DNA of 64,000 bases from a virus. Taxonomy: Duplodnaviria; Heunggongvirae; Uroviricota; Caudoviricetes. The translations under genes were made by a program, and so were the position numbers. The notes beneath the pieces were generated by a model that saw only the letters and a list, made by a program, of their open reading frames with translations, was not told where the DNA came from and searched no databases. Numbering within the stretch: the stretch's first letter is position 1; each line of letters opens with the position of its first letter. This document shows positions 20,061 to 39,701 of this stretch, piece by piece. The stretch lies in IMG/VR virus record IMGVR_UViG_3300031760_000027, positions 20,159-84,158 of that record. The stretch is one strand, 5' to 3'.

Positions 20061-20549
20061 ATGAACCAGAAACAAATAGAAAATATTTTTTATATTTTAA
20101 TAAAAAGAATTATTCAATGTTTCTTTTTATTTTGTATTGGTGGATTAATATATACTACTTTAGAAACATGGTGGAGAGGATACACATTTGATTCAATGTA
20201 TATGTTAGCAGGTATCGTATCTATATTATTAATGATTCTAAATGATGTAGTTTTAGATTATGATACAGAATTTTTTATCCAATGTTTAACAGGTGGAATA
20301 ATGTGTACCTTTTTAGAAGGAATAACAGGTTTAATTGTTAATAGAGATTTTAGTCAATGGGATTATAGGAATTTACCATTCACTTTTTTCTGGGGGCAAT
20401 GTAATTTGTTATTTGTATTTGTTTGGATTATTATTTCATGTTTTGGAATTATTTTTACAGATTGGTATGAATGGAAAATAATGAAAATTGGTGAAAAACC
20501 TTATTATAGGTTAAAGATATTTAATATGAAAAAAATATATTTTTATTGA
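20061..20549 (+). CDS. polytopic membrane protein
   Basis: 162 aa with four hydrophobic segments. Weak resemblance to small putative-ABC-transporter-type membrane proteins. Confidence 0.35.
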   Translation: MNQKQIENIFYILIKRIIQCFFLFCIGGLIYTTLETWWRGYTFDSMYMLAGIVSILLMILNDVVLDYDTEFFIQCLTGGIMCTFLEGITGLIVNRDFSQWDYRNLPFTFFWGQCNLLFVFVWIIISCFGIIFTDWYEWKIMKIGEKPYYRLKIFNMKKIYFY

Positions 20550-31601: not shown

Positions 31602-32540
31602 ATGAGTAATACAATAGCTTATGTAGATAACCAAACTTTAACTAATATTGCTGATGCTGTTAGATATAAAACAGGAACTAATGGGAAAATGTTATTAAGT
31701 GATATTCCTGATAAAATAAGAAATATTGAGGGTATTGTTCCCTCTGGTTCTATAGAAATTACTGAAAATGGGACTTATAATATTTCTGAATATGCGAATG
31801 CGGTGGTTGACGTTCCGTCTGCCGATTATACGATTGAAGATTTGGCAGAGGGTCTACAGCCGAGCGGTGCGGTGGATTTGGGCGATACGGAAACAGTAGC
31901 GCAATATGCTCTGTCTTACCGATTAGCCTTAACATCTGTGACAGGTTCGAACGTAACTGATGTTCAAGCAAGCGGTTTTGCGTTTAGTGGATTGGAATCA
32001 GTAATCTTGCCGTTTGTTACAATCGTAGGTCAGTATACTTTCCAAGGATGCAAAAGTTTGACAACTGTGCATTTGCCGAGAACTAACCTCCAAGCGTTTG
32101 TTTTTTTGGATGCGTCTGCTGTCGAGTTTTTGTTTTTGCCAAGTGCTACAAGTATTGGCATGGGCAGTTTCCAGAGATGCACAAACCTGCAAACTGTTAT
32201 TCTTCCTGCGATGCGCTCACTTAACGCAGGTAATGTATTTGTAGGAGATGCAAACTTGAAAATAATCGTACTTGGATATGATTCGGTTGTAGATTGCAAT
32301 GCGAGCATGTTCGGACAAACACCGTTCGCATCAGGTGGTTCTGGAGGTGATATTTATATTCCCAAAGTACTGTACGACCATTTAGGTGATGACAGTAATC
32401 TGGACTATCTCCACAACACCAGATGGAATACTTTCAACAGCTATGGAACAATCACTTGGCATCCTATCGAGGGGTCTGAATACGAGACATACATGCCAAA
32501 TGGTCAAAAATATAATGAAGAAATGAGTATTATAAAATAA
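31602..32540 (+). CDS. putative receptor-binding protein with BspA-type leucine-rich repeats (LRR_5-like); GC-rich C-terminal domain
   Basis: N-terminus LTNIADAVRYKTG (shared anchor). C-terminal repeats FQGCKSLTTVHLP / GSFQRCTNLQTVILP. GC content is about 50% from ~31790. Confidence 0.45.
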   Translation: MSNTIAYVDNQTLTNIADAVRYKTGTNGKMLLSDIPDKIRNIEGIVPSGSIEITENGTYNISEYANAVVDVPSADYTIEDLAEGLQPSGAVDLGDTETVAQYALSYRLALTSVTGSNVTDVQASGFAFSGLESVILPFVTIVGQYTFQGCKSLTTVHLPRTNLQAFVFLDASAVEFLFLPSATSIGMGSFQRCTNLQTVILPAMRSLNAGNVFVGDANLKIIVLGYDSVVDCNASMFGQTPFASGGSGGDIYIPKVLYDHLGDDSNLDYLHNTRWNTFNSYGTITWHPIEGSEYETYMPNGQKYNEEMSIIK

Positions 32541-32651
32541 AGAATACTTATCTATCATTTATCTATCATTGTATTTATATACTTTTGTTTTATGATAGAT
32601 AAATTATATAATATTTAAAAAATATATAAATAGAAGGATAGGTAAAGAAAT

Positions 32652-34016
32652 ATGGTTAATAAAGAAATGAAATTTTTAGATAACGGTGATATACGTTATG
32701 AAATTGTAGATGCTTCTGCAAGAAATAATATACAACAAATTAATATGACTTTAGACGGTAAAGCAGACGCATCAGATGTTCTCGCCCCCCTTGTTGGTGA
32801 CGCGGATGACATTACACCCCAAGATGTCATAAACGCTCTTGCTGAAGGAAGGAACGCCAGTGTAACAAAGGAATACACTTTCTCTGAAGTAGATTGGAAT
32901 CTGACATTCACAGCATGGAACAGGGTTGTAGATACGACATATAGCGGTAATGTTACAGACCTTGCCATCTCCCAGACTATTGCTATTTTTAATGGAAACT
33001 TCTATCTGTTCGAAATGGTCGGTGGAAAGTACAACGGAGACATGCCGTGGACAATTACATCGTCTCAGATTACAACAGCGCAGGAATTAACGTTCCATTA
33101 CTACGACAAGGACACCATCGATAACATGATGTCTGGAAAGTCTGATAAAGCCACTACACTGTCTGGGTACGGTATAGCTGATGCTTACACTAAGACAGAG
33201 GTGAACAACCTCGTAGAAGGAAGTGGTGTAACATCCGTAAACGGTCAGACTGGTACTGTGACTATAACAGCAAGCGACCTTGGTGCTATGACAGGGATGA
33301 CTATTCTTTCCTATGGTCATTCCACATGGGACGATTTCATAGAAGCATATAACGCAAATCGTATAGTTTACTGCAAAGCATCTACCGCTGCTGACCCTGC
33401 ATCTGGTGAACAGCGCAGAATGGCTTTTTTAGCGTATTTTGAAACAAACAAAACAGGCATGGTAGCTGAGTTTCAGTATTATCGAAGTGTTTCAAGCCAC
33501 ACCGATGCACAACAGGGTGACCAAGTTATTATCTATCAATTAAAGTCTAATAACACATGGTCTGTGACAACAAGGTCTGCTTCAAGCCGTGTGGTTGCGG
33601 GAAGTGGATTATCAAGTGCGTATGCAAGTGATACACTGACATTATCGCTTAACACCGATAATCAGAATAAGATTGACACGCTGTGGAATGACTATGCAAT
33701 TAATGCGGCAACTCCTACTCCTGAGAGTAATGTTCTTCTGGTCACGGTTACAATGTCAAACGAAATATCTGGCATGGCAGACAAGAGTTATGCAGAAGTC
33801 ATCGAAGCATGGAACGCAGGCAAAGTTGTAAGGCTTTACGCCAATGCGCTTGGCGGAGAAATTGACATAACGGCTCGTGGCAAAATCGGTACGACAGATG
33901 AATACTTCATGACAATGCTCCCGATGATAAGTGGAAGTCAGGTAGGATACATGGTTGTAACAATGACTAAAGGTGCAACGGACAGCGACATGATGAGTGT
34001 TGCTCTGCAATTTTAA
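32652..34016 (+). CDS. tail fibre-like protein; GC-rich body
   Basis: 454 aa. Module KSDKATTLSGYGIADAYTKTEVNNLVEGSGVTSVNGQTGTVTITASDLGA is shared with the 27900..30065 protein. GC-rich relative to the genome. Confidence 0.45.
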   Translation: MVNKEMKFLDNGDIRYEIVDASARNNIQQINMTLDGKADASDVLAPLVGDADDITPQDVINALAEGRNASVTKEYTFSEVDWNLTFTAWNRVVDTTYSGNVTDLAISQTIAIFNGNFYLFEMVGGKYNGDMPWTITSSQITTAQELTFHYYDKDTIDNMMSGKSDKATTLSGYGIADAYTKTEVNNLVEGSGVTSVNGQTGTVTITASDLGAMTGMTILSYGHSTWDDFIEAYNANRIVYCKASTAADPASGEQRRMAFLAYFETNKTGMVAEFQYYRSVSSHTDAQQGDQVIIYQLKSNNTWSVTTRSASSRVVAGSGLSSAYASDTLTLSLNTDNQNKIDTLWNDYAINAATPTPESNVLLVTVTMSNEISGMADKSYAEVIEAWNAGKVVRLYANALGGEIDITARGKIGTTDEYFMTMLPMISGSQVGYMVVTMTKGATDSDMMSVALQF

Positions 34017-34137
34017 GGGGGTGAGCGCATGGAAATGCTTAAATTTATAGCAATTTCTGGATGGTCATTATTCGTTATTTCACCTTTTATATAGAGATTC
34101 ATTTTTAACATCATTGATAATGACGATATGGACGCAT

Positions 34138-34392: not shown

Positions 34393-35562
34393 ATGGGAAT
34401 TGTAAGATTACATATTGTAGGAATGGATATTCCAACAGATAAAGGTACTAAAAGTGGTGATTATGCAGTTTTCTATGATGAACACGGTAACGCATTGGTA
34501 TTAGATGCAGGTCAAAGACCTGCATCTGCCAAATTGCGTGAATGGATAAAGAAACAAAATTTTAAAAGAATATGGGCAGTAGGTACACATGCACACACAG
34601 ACCATGTAAACGGAATTATTGATGGTATCAATGACCCTGATATTAAAATAGATAAAGTTTGGTGTGTAGATTATGAATATTTAAAGGTCTATATGTCTGA
34701 TAAATATAAATCTAAACCTTGGTATACACAATTATGCAATATGTATAATAGATGTGGAAAAGGTTTATATGATTTATGTAAAAAAAATAATATACCAGTA
34801 GGTATGTTAAAGACAGGTACACATATTAGATTAGGTGATATTCATTGTAAAGTATTATGGCAGAAATCAAGTTATGGTAGTCCTAATGATGATAATACAG
34901 CAGGTAGCTACATTAATAATAGTTCTCCTGTATTTTTATTTGATTTTGGATATTTTACAGCAGGAGATAATCATTTAACACATTCTGAAATTAGAAAAGT
35001 ATTACCTCAAGTTATTATTGCTCAAATACCGCATCATGGAAACTATGTAGATACAGAAGCTTTTAATAAATTAAATCCTAAAGCCGCATGGTATAATTAT
35101 GGTGAAGTGAATGGTGCTATTGGAAAAGACAAAGGATTTACTTCATGGACTATTCCTAAATTAACTAAAAAGGGAATAGATATTTGGAACAATTATGCTC
35201 ATGGTGAATTAGATATGATATTTACGGATAAGGAAGTAACTATCAAAAGTAAGAAAAATGGTAGTAAAACTTATTCTTTAGATAATTATAAAAACTGGCA
35301 AAGAACTGATACTGAATTAGCAGTAGAAGTTATGCTTGGAAAATGGAACAATGGTGATTATAGGAAAAATGCTCTTGGGACAAGATACACAGATGTTCAA
35401 AAAATAGTTGGTGAATTTGTGAATGATAGAAATAAAATGTTAAATGCAATGGCTGATTATACAATCCGTGGTCTTGCAGGAAATGGTGATATTCGAAAAG
35501 AAACTTTAAAAGGATATTACACAGAAGTACAAGGCATTATTAATGAAAGGTATAAAAAATAA
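34393..35562 (+). CDS. MBL-fold metallo-hydrolase (ComEC-like HHG motif) fused to two CW_7 repeats; paralogue of 26647..27885
   Basis: THAHTDHVNG, TAGDN and QIPHHGN motifs. C-terminal repeats LAVEVMLGKWNNGDYRKNALGTRYTDVQKIVGEFV and a second copy. Confidence 0.55.
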   Translation: MGIVRLHIVGMDIPTDKGTKSGDYAVFYDEHGNALVLDAGQRPASAKLREWIKKQNFKRIWAVGTHAHTDHVNGIIDGINDPDIKIDKVWCVDYEYLKVYMSDKYKSKPWYTQLCNMYNRCGKGLYDLCKKNNIPVGMLKTGTHIRLGDIHCKVLWQKSSYGSPNDDNTAGSYINNSSPVFLFDFGYFTAGDNHLTHSEIRKVLPQVIIAQIPHHGNYVDTEAFNKLNPKAAWYNYGEVNGAIGKDKGFTSWTIPKLTKKGIDIWNNYAHGELDMIFTDKEVTIKSKKNGSKTYSLDNYKNWQRTDTELAVEVMLGKWNNGDYRKNALGTRYTDVQKIVGEFVNDRNKMLNAMADYTIRGLAGNGDIRKETLKGYYTEVQGIINERYKK

Positions 35563-38213
35563 TGGCGAATAAAATAGTTTTTGATTTTTCAGAACATAAT
35601 ACAATTAAAAGTTCTGATTGGGATAATCTTAAAAAAATGTATGATGAAGGTAAATGTAGTGGTATTATTCTTAGAATTGGGTTAAGAGGCTCATTAAAAT
35701 CAAATCCTACATATTATGCTAAAATTCGTTATGATTTTAAATTTAAAGAATATTTAGCAGAAGTTAAAAAAAGGGGTCTGCCCTATAGTGTTTATTATTT
35801 TCCGACTTCTATTTCTGAAAATGAAGCACACGAAGAGGGTAAATGGTTAGTTCAAGCTTTAAAAGATAATGACATTAATCCATCTATTCCTATCTGTCAA
35901 GATTCTGAAATTGTAGATGTTAAAAATAAACAAGGAAGAGCAGATAATCTTTCAAAAGCAAATAGAACTAAATTTATCAATATTGTAAACCAACATCTTA
36001 AAGATGCAGGATATGATTATGGAATTTATGCTTCTACTTCTTGGTTTTATGATTGTTTAAATGATAATGATTTATTAGAGGGAACTTACAGGTGGGTTGC
36101 TCAATATGCTTCTAAATGTACCTATAAAGGTAAAATTGATATGTGGCAATATACGAGCAAATATCCTATGAGTTTTTCTAAAGATGGTGTTGATGCCAGT
36201 TATTGTTATTCTGAAATTAAAACAAAATCTAAACCAGAAGTAACAGAAGATAAAAAGAAAGAACCTAAAGAAGATTCTAAGAATACTGAAACTAATAAAA
36301 TAGAAGATAAAAAGGAAGAAAAAGTTATGATTACTGAAGCAGATTGTATTAATAAAATGATTGAAATTGCCAGTAATGAAGTTGGTTATCTTGAAAAGAA
36401 ATCTAATTCCAATTTATATAGTAAAACTGGAAATGCAGGTTATAATAATTATACTAAATACGGTTATGAAATGCACAAGATTCAGCCTAGCAATATGGAC
36501 TTTCCTGCGGCATGGTGTTTTCCTAAAGGAGTTTTAGTATTAACAGATAATGGGTATAAAGATATTTCTGAGATTCAAATAGGAGATAAAGTGTTGTCAG
36601 CAGATGGAACTCATTTTAATAATGTAATAAATATTTCTGAACACGAAGATAATCTTTATAAAACAACCTACATTGGTAATATTCCTCTTATATCTACAGG
36701 TGAACATCCTGTTTATTCTAAAAAAAGACTTCATATAAGAAAAGATGCAGGATTTACTGACCCTAATTTTAATCCTGTAAAAGAATTAAAAAAGGGAGAC
36801 AGTATCGGTATGACAATGACCAAAGTTGATAATAATATTAATCTATCTTATGATGAAGCTTGGCTTATTGGATATTATGTAGGTGATGGTTGGAAAAGTC
36901 GGAATGATTATTATATTTGTGGTAATGAGAAAAAAAGCATTGAAATAGAAATGCACACTATTGATTTATATAAGGAAGAAATGTATAAAACCAGAACATG
37001 CCAACAATATATATTAAAAAATAATTATAAAAAAATTTTTCCTATATTAGACCATTGTGGAAATGGGGCTTGGCACAAACATGTTCCTGTAGAAATTTTT
37101 TATGCTAATAATAATATCAAACGTGCTTTTTTAAATGGTTATTTGTCTGCTGATGGAAGTCGTAATCTTTCATCTAATATAATTAAATATAATTCTGTTT
37201 CTAAAGAATTGGCAATGGGAATAAATAAAATTGCTACAGATTTGGGATACGGTGTTACTCTTCGGTTGCAACATCGAAATTCAAATTATGAAGTTTTTGA
37301 TGAAAGATATAATCGTTATAGAAAGATTAAAACAAGTGATATTTATAATGGAACAATTAATTTACTTTCTACTGGTAGAAACAACTCCTGTGAGATATTA
37401 GATGGATATTCTTACCATACTATTAAATCAGTATCTGATTTAAATGAAACAAATATTGTTTATAATATGACTACAGATGGAGACCATACTTATACAGCAA
37501 ATAACGTTGCAGTTCATAATTGTGATGCTTTCGTAGATTGGATAATTTTAGAAACTTGCAAAGCTTTTGGTAAAGGAACTGTAGAAGCTAAGAAAGCCCT
37601 TTGTGGAGATTTTGATGATTATACAGTTTATTCATCTAATTACTATAAGAAAAAAGGTAGATGGTTTACGAGTAAGCCTAAAGCAGGAGACCAGATTTTC
37701 TTTAAAAATAATAATGGCATTTGTCATACTGGTATAGTTTATAGAGTAGATTCTTCTAAAGTTTATACTATAGAGGGTAATACTTCTAGTGCTTCAGGTG
37801 TTGTCGCAAATGGTGGATGTGTTGCCAAAAAGTCTTATAGTCTTAGTTATAGTAGAATTGCAGGATATGGAAGACCTGATTGGAGTGGTATCATAGGTAC
37901 TACTGTTATAGTTTCTAATGATGCTAATAACACTGATTCATTAAAAGGAAAATCTACCACTATATTTACAGTATCTGGTACTTTTTCTCCTAACAAAACA
38001 ACAAAATTTGTTGGAACAGTTACAGCGTCTTCTTTAAATATTAGAGAGTGGGCAGGAACTGAAAATGATAAAGTATCTTTTAGTCCTTTGACCAATGGTT
38101 CTAAAGTAAACGTCTGTGATGCTATCTTAGATAATAAAGGAACAACTTGGTATTACATTAGTTACTCTAATAAATTTGGATTTGTAAGTTCAGATTATAT
38201 TAAGAAAGGATAA
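35562..38213 (+). CDS. modular endolysin: GH25-like muramidase + CHAP (Cys-His peptidase) domain interrupted by an intein + C-terminal SH3b
   Basis: N-terminus KIVFDFSEHNTIKSSDWDNLK..GIILRIG (GH25-like). CHAP motifs AAWC|DAFVDW and GICHTGIVY..EGN. C-terminal SH3b-like domain. TAATG overlap with the upstream gene. Confidence 0.75.
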   Translation: MANKIVFDFSEHNTIKSSDWDNLKKMYDEGKCSGIILRIGLRGSLKSNPTYYAKIRYDFKFKEYLAEVKKRGLPYSVYYFPTSISENEAHEEGKWLVQALKDNDINPSIPICQDSEIVDVKNKQGRADNLSKANRTKFINIVNQHLKDAGYDYGIYASTSWFYDCLNDNDLLEGTYRWVAQYASKCTYKGKIDMWQYTSKYPMSFSKDGVDASYCYSEIKTKSKPEVTEDKKKEPKEDSKNTETNKIEDKKEEKVMITEADCINKMIEIASNEVGYLEKKSNSNLYSKTGNAGYNNYTKYGYEMHKIQPSNMDFPAAWCFPKGVLVLTDNGYKDISEIQIGDKVLSADGTHFNNVINISEHEDNLYKTTYIGNIPLISTGEHPVYSKKRLHIRKDAGFTDPNFNPVKELKKGDSIGMTMTKVDNNINLSYDEAWLIGYYVGDGWKSRNDYYICGNEKKSIEIEMHTIDLYKEEMYKTRTCQQYILKNNYKKIFPILDHCGNGAWHKHVPVEIFYANNNIKRAFLNGYLSADGSRNLSSNIIKYNSVSKELAMGINKIATDLGYGVTLRLQHRNSNYEVFDERYNRYRKIKTSDIYNGTINLLSTGRNNSCEILDGYSYHTIKSVSDLNETNIVYNMTTDGDHTYTANNVAVHNCDAFVDWIILETCKAFGKGTVEAKKALCGDFDDYTVYSSNYYKKKGRWFTSKPKAGDQIFFKNNNGICHTGIVYRVDSSKVYTIEGNTSSASGVVANGGCVAKKSYSLSYSRIAGYGRPDWSGIIGTTVIVSNDANNTDSLKGKSTTIFTVSGTFSPNKTTKFVGTVTASSLNIREWAGTENDKVSFSPLTNGSKVNVCDAILDNKGTTWYYISYSNKFGFVSSDYIKKG
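36516..37520 (+). mobile_element. intein (335 aa) with LAGLIDADG homing-endonuclease domain, inserted at the CHAP catalytic Cys
   Basis: Starts with Cys (CFPKGVLVLTDNGYKDISEIQIGDKVLSADG). TGEHP block B. LIGYYVGDGW and FLNGYLSADGS LAGLIDADG motifs. Ends VYNMTTDGDHTYTANNVAVHN followed by Cys+1. Exteins join to AAW-C-DAFVDW. Confidence 0.8.
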
Positions 38214-38231
38214 AGGATAAAGAAACTCGCT

Positions 38232-38735
38232 ATGTCTTTACAGGACTTATTTGAAATGATAAATATATCAGAGATGACAGGAGCAACAGGTCTTATAATA
38301 ACGTTAATTGTTGTTTTAATGACAATAATTCAAATAGCTCCTATCAAAATAAATCCTTGGGATTTCCTTTTAGGTTGGATAGGAGATAGATTAAATTCAC
38401 ATATCATAAAAAAAGTTGATAAATTAGATGCTAAATTAACGGAACACGTAGAAGAAAGCAGAGATGGTACTATAAAAAGAAAAAGAGCAAGAATATTACA
38501 ATTTGTTGAAGACGGTATGGGTGGAAAACGTTATACAAAAGAAGCTTTTGATTTTATGATAATGGAATGTGATGAATATGAAGAGTATATTAAAAAATAT
38601 AATAGGAAAAATGGTGTAATTGAAGCGTCAATTAAAGAAATTAGACGCAGATATTCTGACCATATTCATAATGCTGATTTTGCTGATTTAAGTGAAATGG
38701 AATTACAAAACCAATTAAATCAGAATCAGAAATAA
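38232..38735 (+). CDS. membrane protein downstream of endolysin (possible holin/lysis accessory)
   Basis: 167 aa with one strong TM segment (GLIITLIVVLMTIIQIAPI) and a charged C-terminal domain. Confidence 0.3.
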   Translation: MSLQDLFEMINISEMTGATGLIITLIVVLMTIIQIAPIKINPWDFLLGWIGDRLNSHIIKKVDKLDAKLTEHVEESRDGTIKRKRARILQFVEDGMGGKRYTKEAFDFMIMECDEYEEYIKKYNRKNGVIEASIKEIRRRYSDHIHNADFADLSEMELQNQLNQNQK

Positions 38736-38740
38736 AATTA

Positions 38741-38780
38741 GGGGGGTACTAGCCGAATAGGTTGGTATCCCCCTTTTTTG
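38741..38780. terminator. bidirectional rho-independent terminator between the convergent modules
   Basis: ggggggtac...gtatccccc stem followed by tttttt. A-rich on the other side for minus-strand transcripts. Confidence 0.6.
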
Positions 38781-38795
38781 TTTCATTCTATTTAT

Positions 38796-39701
38796 TTATT
38801 TATTATTAATACCATACATAATATCACTATCACTAACTACAGAAGGGGTTTTGCCATTCCATTTTTGAATCCATTCTCTCTGTAAGACTTCTGGAGTAAT
38901 AGATTTAGAAATCTTCTCATTAGCTTCAGCTTCAGCTTCAGCTTCAATTATTTTGGCTTCAGCCTTACCCTGTGCTTCAATCCTTTGTTTTTCAGCTTCT
39001 GCCTTTGCTTGGTCGATAGTTTTCTGATTCTCATAAGCCTGTTCTTCAGCAGAAAGTTTAGCCTGTGCCTTTTTCTCAATAGCATCGTTATAAGCATCAG
39101 AGAAGTTAATATTGCTAATTGTAACACTAATTACTGTGACAACTTGATTATTATATTTAGTATTTAAAGATTTCTGAATATATTCTTTAGCTGTTTTTTC
39201 AATCTTACTTCTATCAGTTACGTCTGTATCATTATATTGTTTAAAAGCCGCTTTAAGTCCAGATTCAACAGAAGTTCTTTTAACAAGATTAGTATCCCAT
39301 TCTTCAATGTTAGACCAAATCCAAGCACCATATTCAGCATTAATCTGATAGTCTACTACAATATTTTCAGCATATACTTCAGTACGTTCAGATGTTTCTG
39401 ACCAGATTTTATCTTTATCAAATACCATTTCCTGCTGTTTGCAATTCATTTTATGAATATTTTCTACAAAAGGAACATGGAAATGAATGCCTGTTGAAAC
39501 AGGACTACCTGAAATCTGACCATAAGCAGTTCTAATACCAATATACCCTGTAGGGACAAAAGTAATTGAACAACCTAAAATCAAAAGTATAAGTCCTAAA
39601 AAGACTGCTCCTACATTGAGAATTGTAGCCTTTTCTGCCATGCCCATAAAAATAAAACCAAAAGCAACAAAAATTATTCCTAAAACAATTAAAACAATCA
39701 T
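38796..39701 (-). CDS. SPFH/band-7 (HflK/C-, stomatin-, flotillin-like) membrane protein
   Basis: N-terminal TM helix, then SPFH core (GYIGIRTAYGQISGSPVSTGIHFHVPFVENIHKM...), then AEAEAEA coiled-coil tail. Confidence 0.65.
   Translation of the reverse strand: MIVLIVLGIIFVAFGFIFMGMAEKATILNVGAVFLGLILLILGCSITFVPTGYIGIRTAYGQISGSPVSTGIHFHVPFVENIHKMNCKQQEMVFDKDKIWSETSERTEVYAENIVVDYQINAEYGAWIWSNIEEWDTNLVKRTSVESGLKAAFKQYNDTDVTDRSKIEKTAKEYIQKSLNTKYNNQVVTVISVTISNINFSDAYNDAIEKKAQAKLSAEEQAYENQKTIDQAKAEAEKQRIEAQGKAEAKIIEAEAEAEANEKISKSITPEVLQREWIQKWNGKTPSVVSDSDIMYGINNK

Follow-up and report, generated by a model that had tools for sequence, protein, structure and literature searches.

An intein interrupts the CHAP domain of a phage endolysin

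We analyzed a 64,000-nucleotide stretch of tailed-phage DNA (Caudoviricetes; positions 20,159 to 84,158 of IMG/VR record IMGVR_UViG_3300031760_000027), hereafter referred to as the window, in which an endolysin precursor gene carries a 335-amino acid (aa) LAGLIDADG intein directly in front of the predicted catalytic Cys of the encoded CHAP domain (Table 1). From the N- to the C-terminus, the precursor consists of a GH25 muramidase domain, a Lys/Glu-rich linker, the N-terminal half of the CHAP domain, the intein, the C-terminal half of the CHAP domain and an SH3b domain, and it matches the PHROG endolysin families phrog_291 and phrog_9589. The precursor has a predicted mass of 100.1 kDa, the spliced lysin one of 61.8 kDa and the intein one of 38.3 kDa, where an initial annotation of the window had estimated ~97, ~60 and 38 kDa. 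The GH25 domain probably starts near aa 1, ahead of the Pfam match, lies wholly within the N-extein and is apparently intact; D8 and D114-S-E116, which we take to be catalytic by likeness to GH25 enzymes such as Cpl-1, are legible in the sequence. The match to SH3b is below the gathering score in the window protein, and the precomputed SH3_3 annotation is also present on homologues of the lysin. No hydrophobic segment was found in the lysin (maximum KD19 0.79), which is without a signal or transmembrane segment. A signal- or signal-anchor-release-type lysin, for which cytoplasmic splicing would be relevant to export, is ruled out because such a segment is absent. Base composition does not mark the intein as foreign, because the GC content is 0.26-0.31 in the intein and its flanks alike.

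The intein has the residues and folds of a full-length class 1 element

The edges of the intein read ...MDFPAAW/CFPKGVLVLT... and ...NNVAVHN/CDAFVDWIILE, with the slash marking the splice junction. The initial annotation had recognized the conserved intein blocks and two LAGLIDADG motifs between these edges, and Pfam matches, residue conservation and fold bear this out. In the profile hidden Markov model (HMM) scan that it suggested, LAGLIDADG_3 (PF14528; aa 519-577, E 1.6e-8) and CHAP scored above their cutoffs, and the splicing models Intein_splicing (aa 326-653) and Hom_end_hint (aa 319-370) gave significant E-values just under the gathering scores. Taken together, these matches are well past what chance would produce. 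The only NCBIfam models matched by the precursor are those of intein-containing proteins, i.e. GyrA_w_intein, RpoA'', DnaB and VMA.

An AlphaFold model of the intein with short flanks (pLDDT 86.6, pTM 0.84) matches the TliVMA intein (7qsu) in Foldseek with an E-value of 8.6e-19, a TM score of 0.65-0.69 and a probability of 1.00, and further full-length matches are PI-SceI (probability 1.00), PI-PfuI and PI-PkoII. The Hint part matches the mini-inteins gp41-1, Prp8 and GyrA (probability 1.00), while the endonuclease part has fold matches to I-DmoI and PI-SceI and a PDB sequence match to PI-PkoII.

Among the members of the intein family, Cys1, T61, H64, H334, N335 (intein numbering) and Cys+1 are invariant in 23/23 sequences, and the Asp of the LAGLIDADG motif is kept in 22/22 (motif 1) and 21/23 (motif 2). 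The ratio of non-synonymous to synonymous substitution rates (dN/dS) between the window and the closely related intein-bearing contig L002 is 0.08 in the intein, 0.11 in the endonuclease domain and 0.10 and 0.18 in the exteins; the C-terminal Hint part has no non-synonymous change at all. The low dN/dS ratios together with the conserved residues argue that the splicing and endonuclease functions are both being maintained by purifying selection. A family HMM finds the intein in the window at E 4e-155 and detects no further inteins of this family in the 64 kb. On this evidence, the element is probably a canonical, splicing-competent class 1 intein.

The intein splits the CHAP domain at its catalytic Cys

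The Pfam CHAP model matches aa 646-740 of the precursor with 30.2 bits and the spliced sequence with 31.1 bits (cutoff 26). This model begins almost at the catalytic Cys and, on its own, cannot join the two halves into one domain. That they are one domain is concluded from intein-less homologues and from a model of the spliced sequence. Alignment of 18 natural intein-less CHAP regions and the spliced sequence of the window shows the columns W65-C66, H134-T-G and E150-G-N152 to be invariant in all 19 sequences; they correspond to W318/C654, H722 and E738-G-N740 in the window. Cys+1, the CHAP His and Glu-Gly-Asn are also invariant in all 23 intein-bearing alleles compared. In the model of the spliced CHAP domain (pLDDT 92.5, pTM 0.90), the core helix (model residues 65-80) has the Cys at its N-terminus, the His and Glu/Asn lie on the strands that follow, and the N-terminal half forms helices at residues 6-19 and 46-54 with pLDDT >90. 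Thus, the spliced model has the papain-like fold with a Cys heading a helix, and Foldseek concurs; a search of the PDB with the spliced CHAP sequence gave no real match.

The position of the split was also examined with a CHAP profile derived exclusively from sequences without the intein. In intein-bearing lysins, positions 3-66 of this profile match directly before the intein and positions of about 62-180 directly after it; the former match was obtained in 33 fetched intein-bearing lysins, with the window protein outside the scan. The claim of the initial annotation that Cys+1 is the CHAP nucleophile agrees with these data in that Cys+1 coincides with the invariant CHAP Cys in both the alignment and the model. 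In other words, Cys654 is predicted to double as the +1 nucleophile in splicing and as the nucleophile of the CHAP domain.

Intein-bearing and intein-less alleles coexist in closely related phages

A homologue search returned intein-bearing relatives with 95% (P0001) and 60-64% (P0002 and P0003) identity to the window lysin, together with an intein-less homologue of 549 aa that is 94% identical to it (P0004). P0002 and P0003 have intein-less partners as well, i.e. P0007 and P0009. As anticipated from the window sequence, removal of the intein restores a contiguous CHAP domain, and this uninterrupted form is found in P0004, P0007, P0009 and a further intein-less homologue, P0005. At the DNA level, contig L001, which encodes P0004, shares 94.9% identity with window positions 34513-36518 and 84.5% with positions 37521-39693. 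This empty allele lacks exactly 1005 bp; the sole ambiguity lies in the shared TG(T) of the Cys codon. The intein boundaries originally assigned are thus confirmed to the base. L002 is colinear with the window at 94%. In three pairs of alleles with and without the intein (window/L002 versus L001, L015 versus L016 and L017 versus L018), the DNA alignment breaks at the intein edges. The empty insertion site has the sequence ...CCTGCGGCATGG/TGTGATGCTTTCGTAGATTGG...; it reads TGTAATACTTTTACAGAT in L001, and the consensus site is TGTGATGCTTTCGTAGAT. The flanks are syntenic in all pairs, with a CW_7 protein or small open reading frames upstream and a membrane protein of 167-176 aa followed by a Band_7 protein or an integrase downstream.

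The 18 nucleotides (nt) immediately 3' of the insertion site (window 37521-37538; L001 2007-2024) are rich in substitutions in the three allele pairs, with 5, 6 and 8 of 18 positions changed versus a background of 5.5-11.5% (binomial P 0.002-0.0005). The following 15 nt are identical in the pairs window/L001 and L015/L016. At the protein level, CDAFVDW of the window corresponds to CNTFTDW in the empty allele of L001. Possible causes of the excess are endonuclease-resistant targets, co-conversion tracts or co-adaptation of extein and intein at +2 to +5.

A diverse and apparently mobile family of lysin inteins

Besides the window protein, 35 of 266 fetched proteins contain an intein at the catalytic Cys of a CHAP domain. 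Both profile halves flank the intein at Cys66 in 31 of these, and the other four were placed by junction sequence or offset. The intein-bearing lysins have diverse domain layouts, including GH25-CHAP-SH3b, CHAP-PG_binding_1, CHAP-CW_7-GH25, PF18013 with CHAP, and a fifth in which a metallo-beta-lactamase domain, choline-binding repeats and a glucosaminidase are combined with CHAP. Across the family, the inteins are as low as 40-50% identical. When 1.84 billion cluster representatives were searched with a profile, a distinct top group stood out in which the match extends into the extein flanks. Related intein lysin genes are present on three IMG/VR viral contigs (L004, L005 and L006) and in the independent Logan runs SRR16020867 (L002), SRR28623929 (L015) and SRR30827585 (L017).

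The intein-bearing lysins from the homologue search all come from metagenome sources (lgn, ena) and none from NCBI. None of the GenBank phage records in the collection has a CHAP-intein lysin, and megablast of the lysin gene against GenBank phages gave no match. Among GTDB representative genomes, which were searched with two intein peptide patterns only, no CHAP-intein was found, with one weak and unrelated intein match in an Acidimicrobiia metagenome-assembled genome. Searching for homologues of the intein alone gave only three proteins and is uninformative on distribution. In GenBank, the exteins are closest to the unannotated phage genome MT835469.1 from human feces and to the endolysin of Blautia phage Montmirail; in both cases, the alignment falls into two segments with the intein left out between them.

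In addition to the polymorphism between alleles with and without the intein, which is one sign of mobility, several members of the family bear on mobility. In P0027 (intein aa 64-299, 236 aa), LAGLIDADG motif 1 is deleted and motif 2 reads SING, and in P0140 (intein aa 62-355, 294 aa) the endonuclease is lost or degraded. Both proteins retain all splicing residues and, to judge from these sequences, are natural mini-intein derivatives, matching the prediction of the homing cycle. The inteins of P0020 and P0024 are 76% identical, whereas their CHAP domains are 45% identical, and this discordance points to horizontal movement of the intein; across the family, intein and CHAP identity are weakly correlated (Spearman 0.20). 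Moreover, a second, divergent intein lineage (..FIADGVVVHN/C) occupies the same CHAP Cys in the more distant CHAP proteins P0157, P0158, P0181, P0196 and P0225, suggesting that this one site has either been invaded more than once or been occupied for a very long time. The motifs of this second lineage look nearer to those of the inteins in the radical-SAM activase-like proteins P0128 and P0185.

In the lineage of P0002 and P0007, an integrase gene follows the lysis cassette (L015 5406-6574; L016 3397-4578). Intein-bearing CHAP lysins are, therefore, not confined to the large replication-competent phage of the window but are found in temperate phages too.

Genomic context of the lysin gene

The window is part of a large, AT-rich (~30% GC) tailed-phage genome. 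On the plus strand, the tail genes form a block that has the lysis cassette at its end, and on the minus strand there is a replication block with PolIII alpha, a RecD/Dda-like helicase, DnaB and primase. No tRNAs were found in the window. A gene for a membrane protein of 167-176 aa follows the lysin gene in L001, L002 and L015-L018 as in the window; its family, phrog_37604, has no assigned function in PHROG, and we consider the window protein a putative holin from its position and topology only.

The 389-aa protein encoded directly upstream of the lysin contains two CW_7 repeats (PF08230, E 1.9e-15) and an N-terminal part that is weakly metallo-beta-lactamase-like (Lactamase_B, E 0.012); PHROG endolysin/amidase families match only its C-terminal repeats. 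A module of this type is fused to the N-terminus of the giant lysins P0019, P0025 and P0026. Just before the lysis cassette, window positions 32000-34050 form a GC-rich island (0.41-0.46 versus ~0.30 elsewhere) covering a 454-aa open reading frame (32652-34016, plus strand) with weak matches to tail-protein PHROGs, and this island may be a recently exchanged receptor-binding module. Right after the cassette, a convergent gene for an SPFH/Band_7 membrane protein (38796-39701, minus strand) has a position that is conserved in L002, L017 and L018. The GC skew changes sign at ~38.7 kb, at the switch between transcription blocks.

Table 1. Features of the lysin locus (nt, window positions; residues, numbering of the precursor)
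Feature	Position (nt)	Strand	Residues	Evidence and remarks
Endolysin precursor gene	35562-38213	+	883 aa	Open reading frame list, Pfam, PHROG
Intein, class 1 type (Cys1 ... His-Asn)	36516-37520	+	319-653 (335 aa)	1005-bp indel, Pfam, AlphaFold, Foldseek
Intein, N-terminal Hint part	36516-36848	+		Block A Cys319; block B TGEH with T379/H382 (nt 36696-36707); boundary with endonuclease approximate
LAGLIDADG homing endonuclease domain	36849-37361	+		PF14528; boundaries approximate
LAGLIDADG motif 1	36864-36893	+		LIGYYVGDGW, Asp442
LAGLIDADG motif 2	37128-37160	+		FLNGYLSADGS, Asp531
Intein, C-terminal Hint part	37362-37520	+		Block F VYNMTTDGDHTY; block G ANNVAVHN; terminal His652-Asn653
CHAP, N-terminal half	36324-36515	+	255-318	Profile from intein-less homologues; ends in invariant Trp at -1
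Cys654	37521-37523	+	654	Intein +1 nucleophile and predicted CHAP catalytic Cys
CHAP, C-terminal half	37521-37886	+	654-775	His722 (nt 37725); Glu738-Gly-Asn740 (nt 37773-37781)
GH25 muramidase domain	35730-36167	+	57-202	Pfam PF01183, E 8e-17, 62.5 bits
SH3b cell-wall-binding domain	38028-38204	+	823-881	SH3_3 PF08239, E 1e-4, 22.9 bits, below gathering score 27
Membrane protein, putative holin	38232-38735	+	167 aa	Position and one transmembrane segment (aa 20-38, KD19 2.53)
389-aa protein	34393-35562	+	389 aa	Directly upstream; overlaps lysin start by one base

A model for the lysin intein and its alternatives

We suggest that the locus encodes an in-frame class 1 intein with an active-looking, double-motif LAGLIDADG endonuclease, inserted before the CHAP catalytic Cys of a cytoplasmic GH25-CHAP-SH3b endolysin, and that this intein splices, spreads by homing and is selfish; we assign this explanation a probability of roughly 0.8. 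According to this model, the 100-kDa precursor would be produced late in infection. Following the steps of established intein chemistry, Cys319 would carry out an N-S acyl shift, the thioester would be attacked by Cys654 (trans-thioesterification), cyclization of Asn653 would free the 38-kDa intein, and an S-N shift would link Trp318 to Cys654 to give a 62-kDa lysin with a contiguous CHAP domain in which the nucleophile is the former +1 Cys. The endonuclease, free or within the precursor, would cut intein-less lysin alleles of co-infecting related phages, and repair would copy the intein in. Inteins must precede a Cys, Ser or Thr, and conserved catalytic sites are favored for selfish reasons. 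Insertion at the catalytic Cys is expected from intein biology, which calls for a nucleophile at +1 and a conserved DNA target, and the selfish element would persist at a conserved and selectable site where a Cys is needed. The anatomy, the folds, the conserved residues, the purifying selection and the exact presence/absence polymorphism are established here, and we infer that the intein splices, that its endonuclease is active and that it has no regulatory role.

Some observations weigh against this explanation. The Pfam intein-splicing models score 28.9 versus a threshold of 35.8 and 25.7 versus 32.1, for which the fold search compensates. The block F residue is Asn (VYNM), where Asp is usual, and the -1 residue is a bulky Trp that is invariant in the family. 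Also, all sequences are metagenome assemblies, without a cultured phage or known host. Either the block F Asn or the -1 Trp could slow splicing, and activation of the CHAP domain might then be affected kinetically.

The initial annotation had gone further and proposed that an intein in a lysis enzyme would make host lysis dependent on splicing as a possible timing control. For such a regulatory intein, conditional or slow splicing, responsive to redox via Cys1/Cys+1 or tuned by the -1 Trp and the block F Asn, would gate the CHAP domain and either delay lysis or avert premature damage to the wall. With the intein sitting on the catalytic nucleophile, the CHAP domain must be inactive before splicing, and the lysin-intein family is old and diverse, with members only 40-50% identical. 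Conditional splicing is documented for RadA, DnaB and RecA inteins (PMC5790916, PMC6195587, PMC11377839), and tuned splicing rates have been proposed for phages by Kelley et al. (PMC5050341). However, the intein is dispensable because it is present in some and absent from other closely related phages; its presence varies within three lineages and is, thus, not fixed as a benefit to the host would predict. Because the GH25 domain is unbroken in the N-extein and already linked to SH3b before splicing, at most the CHAP activity depends on splicing. A membrane protein in the holin position follows a lysin without export signal or transmembrane segment, so that the phage can rely on the usual holin clock. 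Finally, the endonuclease is under purifying selection and serves mobility rather than the host, and no feature specific to regulation was found in the sequence. The dependence of lysis on splicing thus finds no support, and we regard a regulatory intein as improbable; the intein is most likely selfish and not a lysis timer. A stricter variant, in which the intein acts as a conditional switch with slow or redox- or temperature-gated splicing so that the second catalytic domain is armed only late or in certain cell states, is in our estimate slightly less probable still. If true, lysis would pass through a post-translational checkpoint that does not involve the holin, and this would be the first intein with a demonstrated regulatory role in a virulence or lysis enzyme.

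We consider it quite unlikely, more so than regulation, that the Hint domain is decayed and does not splice. The CHAP domain would then be disrupted with the GH25 domain doing lysis, or BIL-like self-cleavage would release GH25 and CHAP-C/SH3b fragments. The splicing-domain scores under the gathering thresholds and the replacement of the block F Asp by Asn are in line with decay, and the intact second catalytic domain could carry lysis alone. By contrast, the splicing residues that we checked are intact in 23/23 family members and the C-terminal splicing part is without non-synonymous changes. Moreover, the CHAP halves, the His and Glu-Gly-Asn are invariant in the intein-bearing alleles with extein dN/dS of 0.10-0.18, which is unexpected for a dead domain. 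BIL domains are Hint domains without an endonuclease that do not require a +1 nucleophile and are found in variable secreted proteins; here, the endonuclease is present, Cys+1 is invariant and the lysin is without an export signal. Lastly, unrelated reads could have been mis-joined in metagenome assembly, as the window and all of its relatives are metagenome-derived. The chance of such an artefact is negligible: the same in-frame architecture is present in independent samples (three Logan runs and three IMG/VR contigs) and in 35 other distinct proteins, and the insertion preserves a reading frame that is under purifying selection.

Implications

In the preferred explanation of a selfish, splicing intein, the mechanism is that of a textbook intein, and the novelty appears to lie in the host protein; the lysin inteins represent a new allele family. 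We found no published report of an intein in an endolysin in the open-access literature searched. Known inteins are strongly concentrated in proteins for DNA replication, repair, packaging and nucleotide metabolism, and a diverse and apparently active family in lysins widens the host range. With close phages that do or do not carry the intein, an easy wall-lysis read-out and a +1 nucleophile that is the catalytic Cys, these lysins offer a natural system for the debate on selfish versus regulatory inteins. They also provide ~36 natural intein variants that tolerate Trp at -1 and Cys-Asp/Ala at +1/+2, and a ready template for lysins that activate themselves or are activated conditionally. Intein lysins of this kind would be assigned a wrong size and a wrong annotation by automated pipelines; here, Pfam sees only the C-terminal part of the CHAP domain.

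Comparison with known systems

The lysin intein shares its overall design with the full-length LAGLIDADG inteins PI-SceI/VMA1, TliVMA, PI-PfuI and PI-PkoII, in which Hint is likewise interrupted by a double-motif endonuclease and which have Cys1, TxxH, His-Asn and a +1 Cys. However, identity to these inteins is only 14-18%, the 335-aa lysin intein is smaller than the matched PI-SceI, PI-PfuI and PI-PkoII chains (394-537 aa), and it resides in a peptidoglycan hydrolase and not in an ATPase, polymerase or ribonucleotide reductase. The nearest relatives outside lysins are phage inteins in DNA cytosine methyltransferases and NrdD, which are 24-28% identical over the whole intein (tblastn, E down to 1e-24) and include those of Escherichia phages A4 and P1 (Dmt), Lactobacillus phage Nyseid and Lactococcus phage 949. 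The intein of the C5-methyltransferase P0121 is 30% identical to the lysin intein. These inteins have the same size and layout, but their exteins are classical proteins of nucleic-acid and nucleotide metabolism and not lysis enzymes.

Mycobacteriophage inteins are also found at catalytic motifs; several were shown to splice and to have active homing endonucleases, and regulation has been considered for them as well (Kelley et al. 2016, PMC5050341). The hosts listed in that study comprise TerL, a RecB-like nuclease, RDF, a nucleotidyltransferase, DNA methyltransferases, ThyX, a helicase, TOPRIM and portal proteins, in agreement with the statement of the initial annotation that phage inteins reside mostly in genes for DNA metabolism and packaging (PMC5050341). 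These inteins are phage-borne and at catalytic motifs like the one described here, but the listed hosts include no lysin. Payne and Hatfull report an intron or intein in 0/224 mycobacteriophage Lysin A genes (PMC3314691). For the clostridial endolysins CD27L and CTP1L, intrinsic post-translational processing has been proposed as a trigger (PMC4110038). This processing is a linker cleavage without Hint or ligation and is unrelated to the lysin intein in sequence and chemistry.

The nearest precedent at the level of the gene is provided by group I introns, which interrupt lysin genes in Streptococcus thermophilus phages as well as in staphylococcal phages. In the Staphylococcus K-like phages K, G1, ISP and A5W, they are present in the endolysin gene (lysK) (PMC5526547). 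Like the lysin intein, these introns are self-splicing mobile elements in a phage lysin gene, and their presence varies among close relatives. However, the introns leave the mRNA, whereas the intein is translated and must leave the protein, so that an inactive precursor exists.

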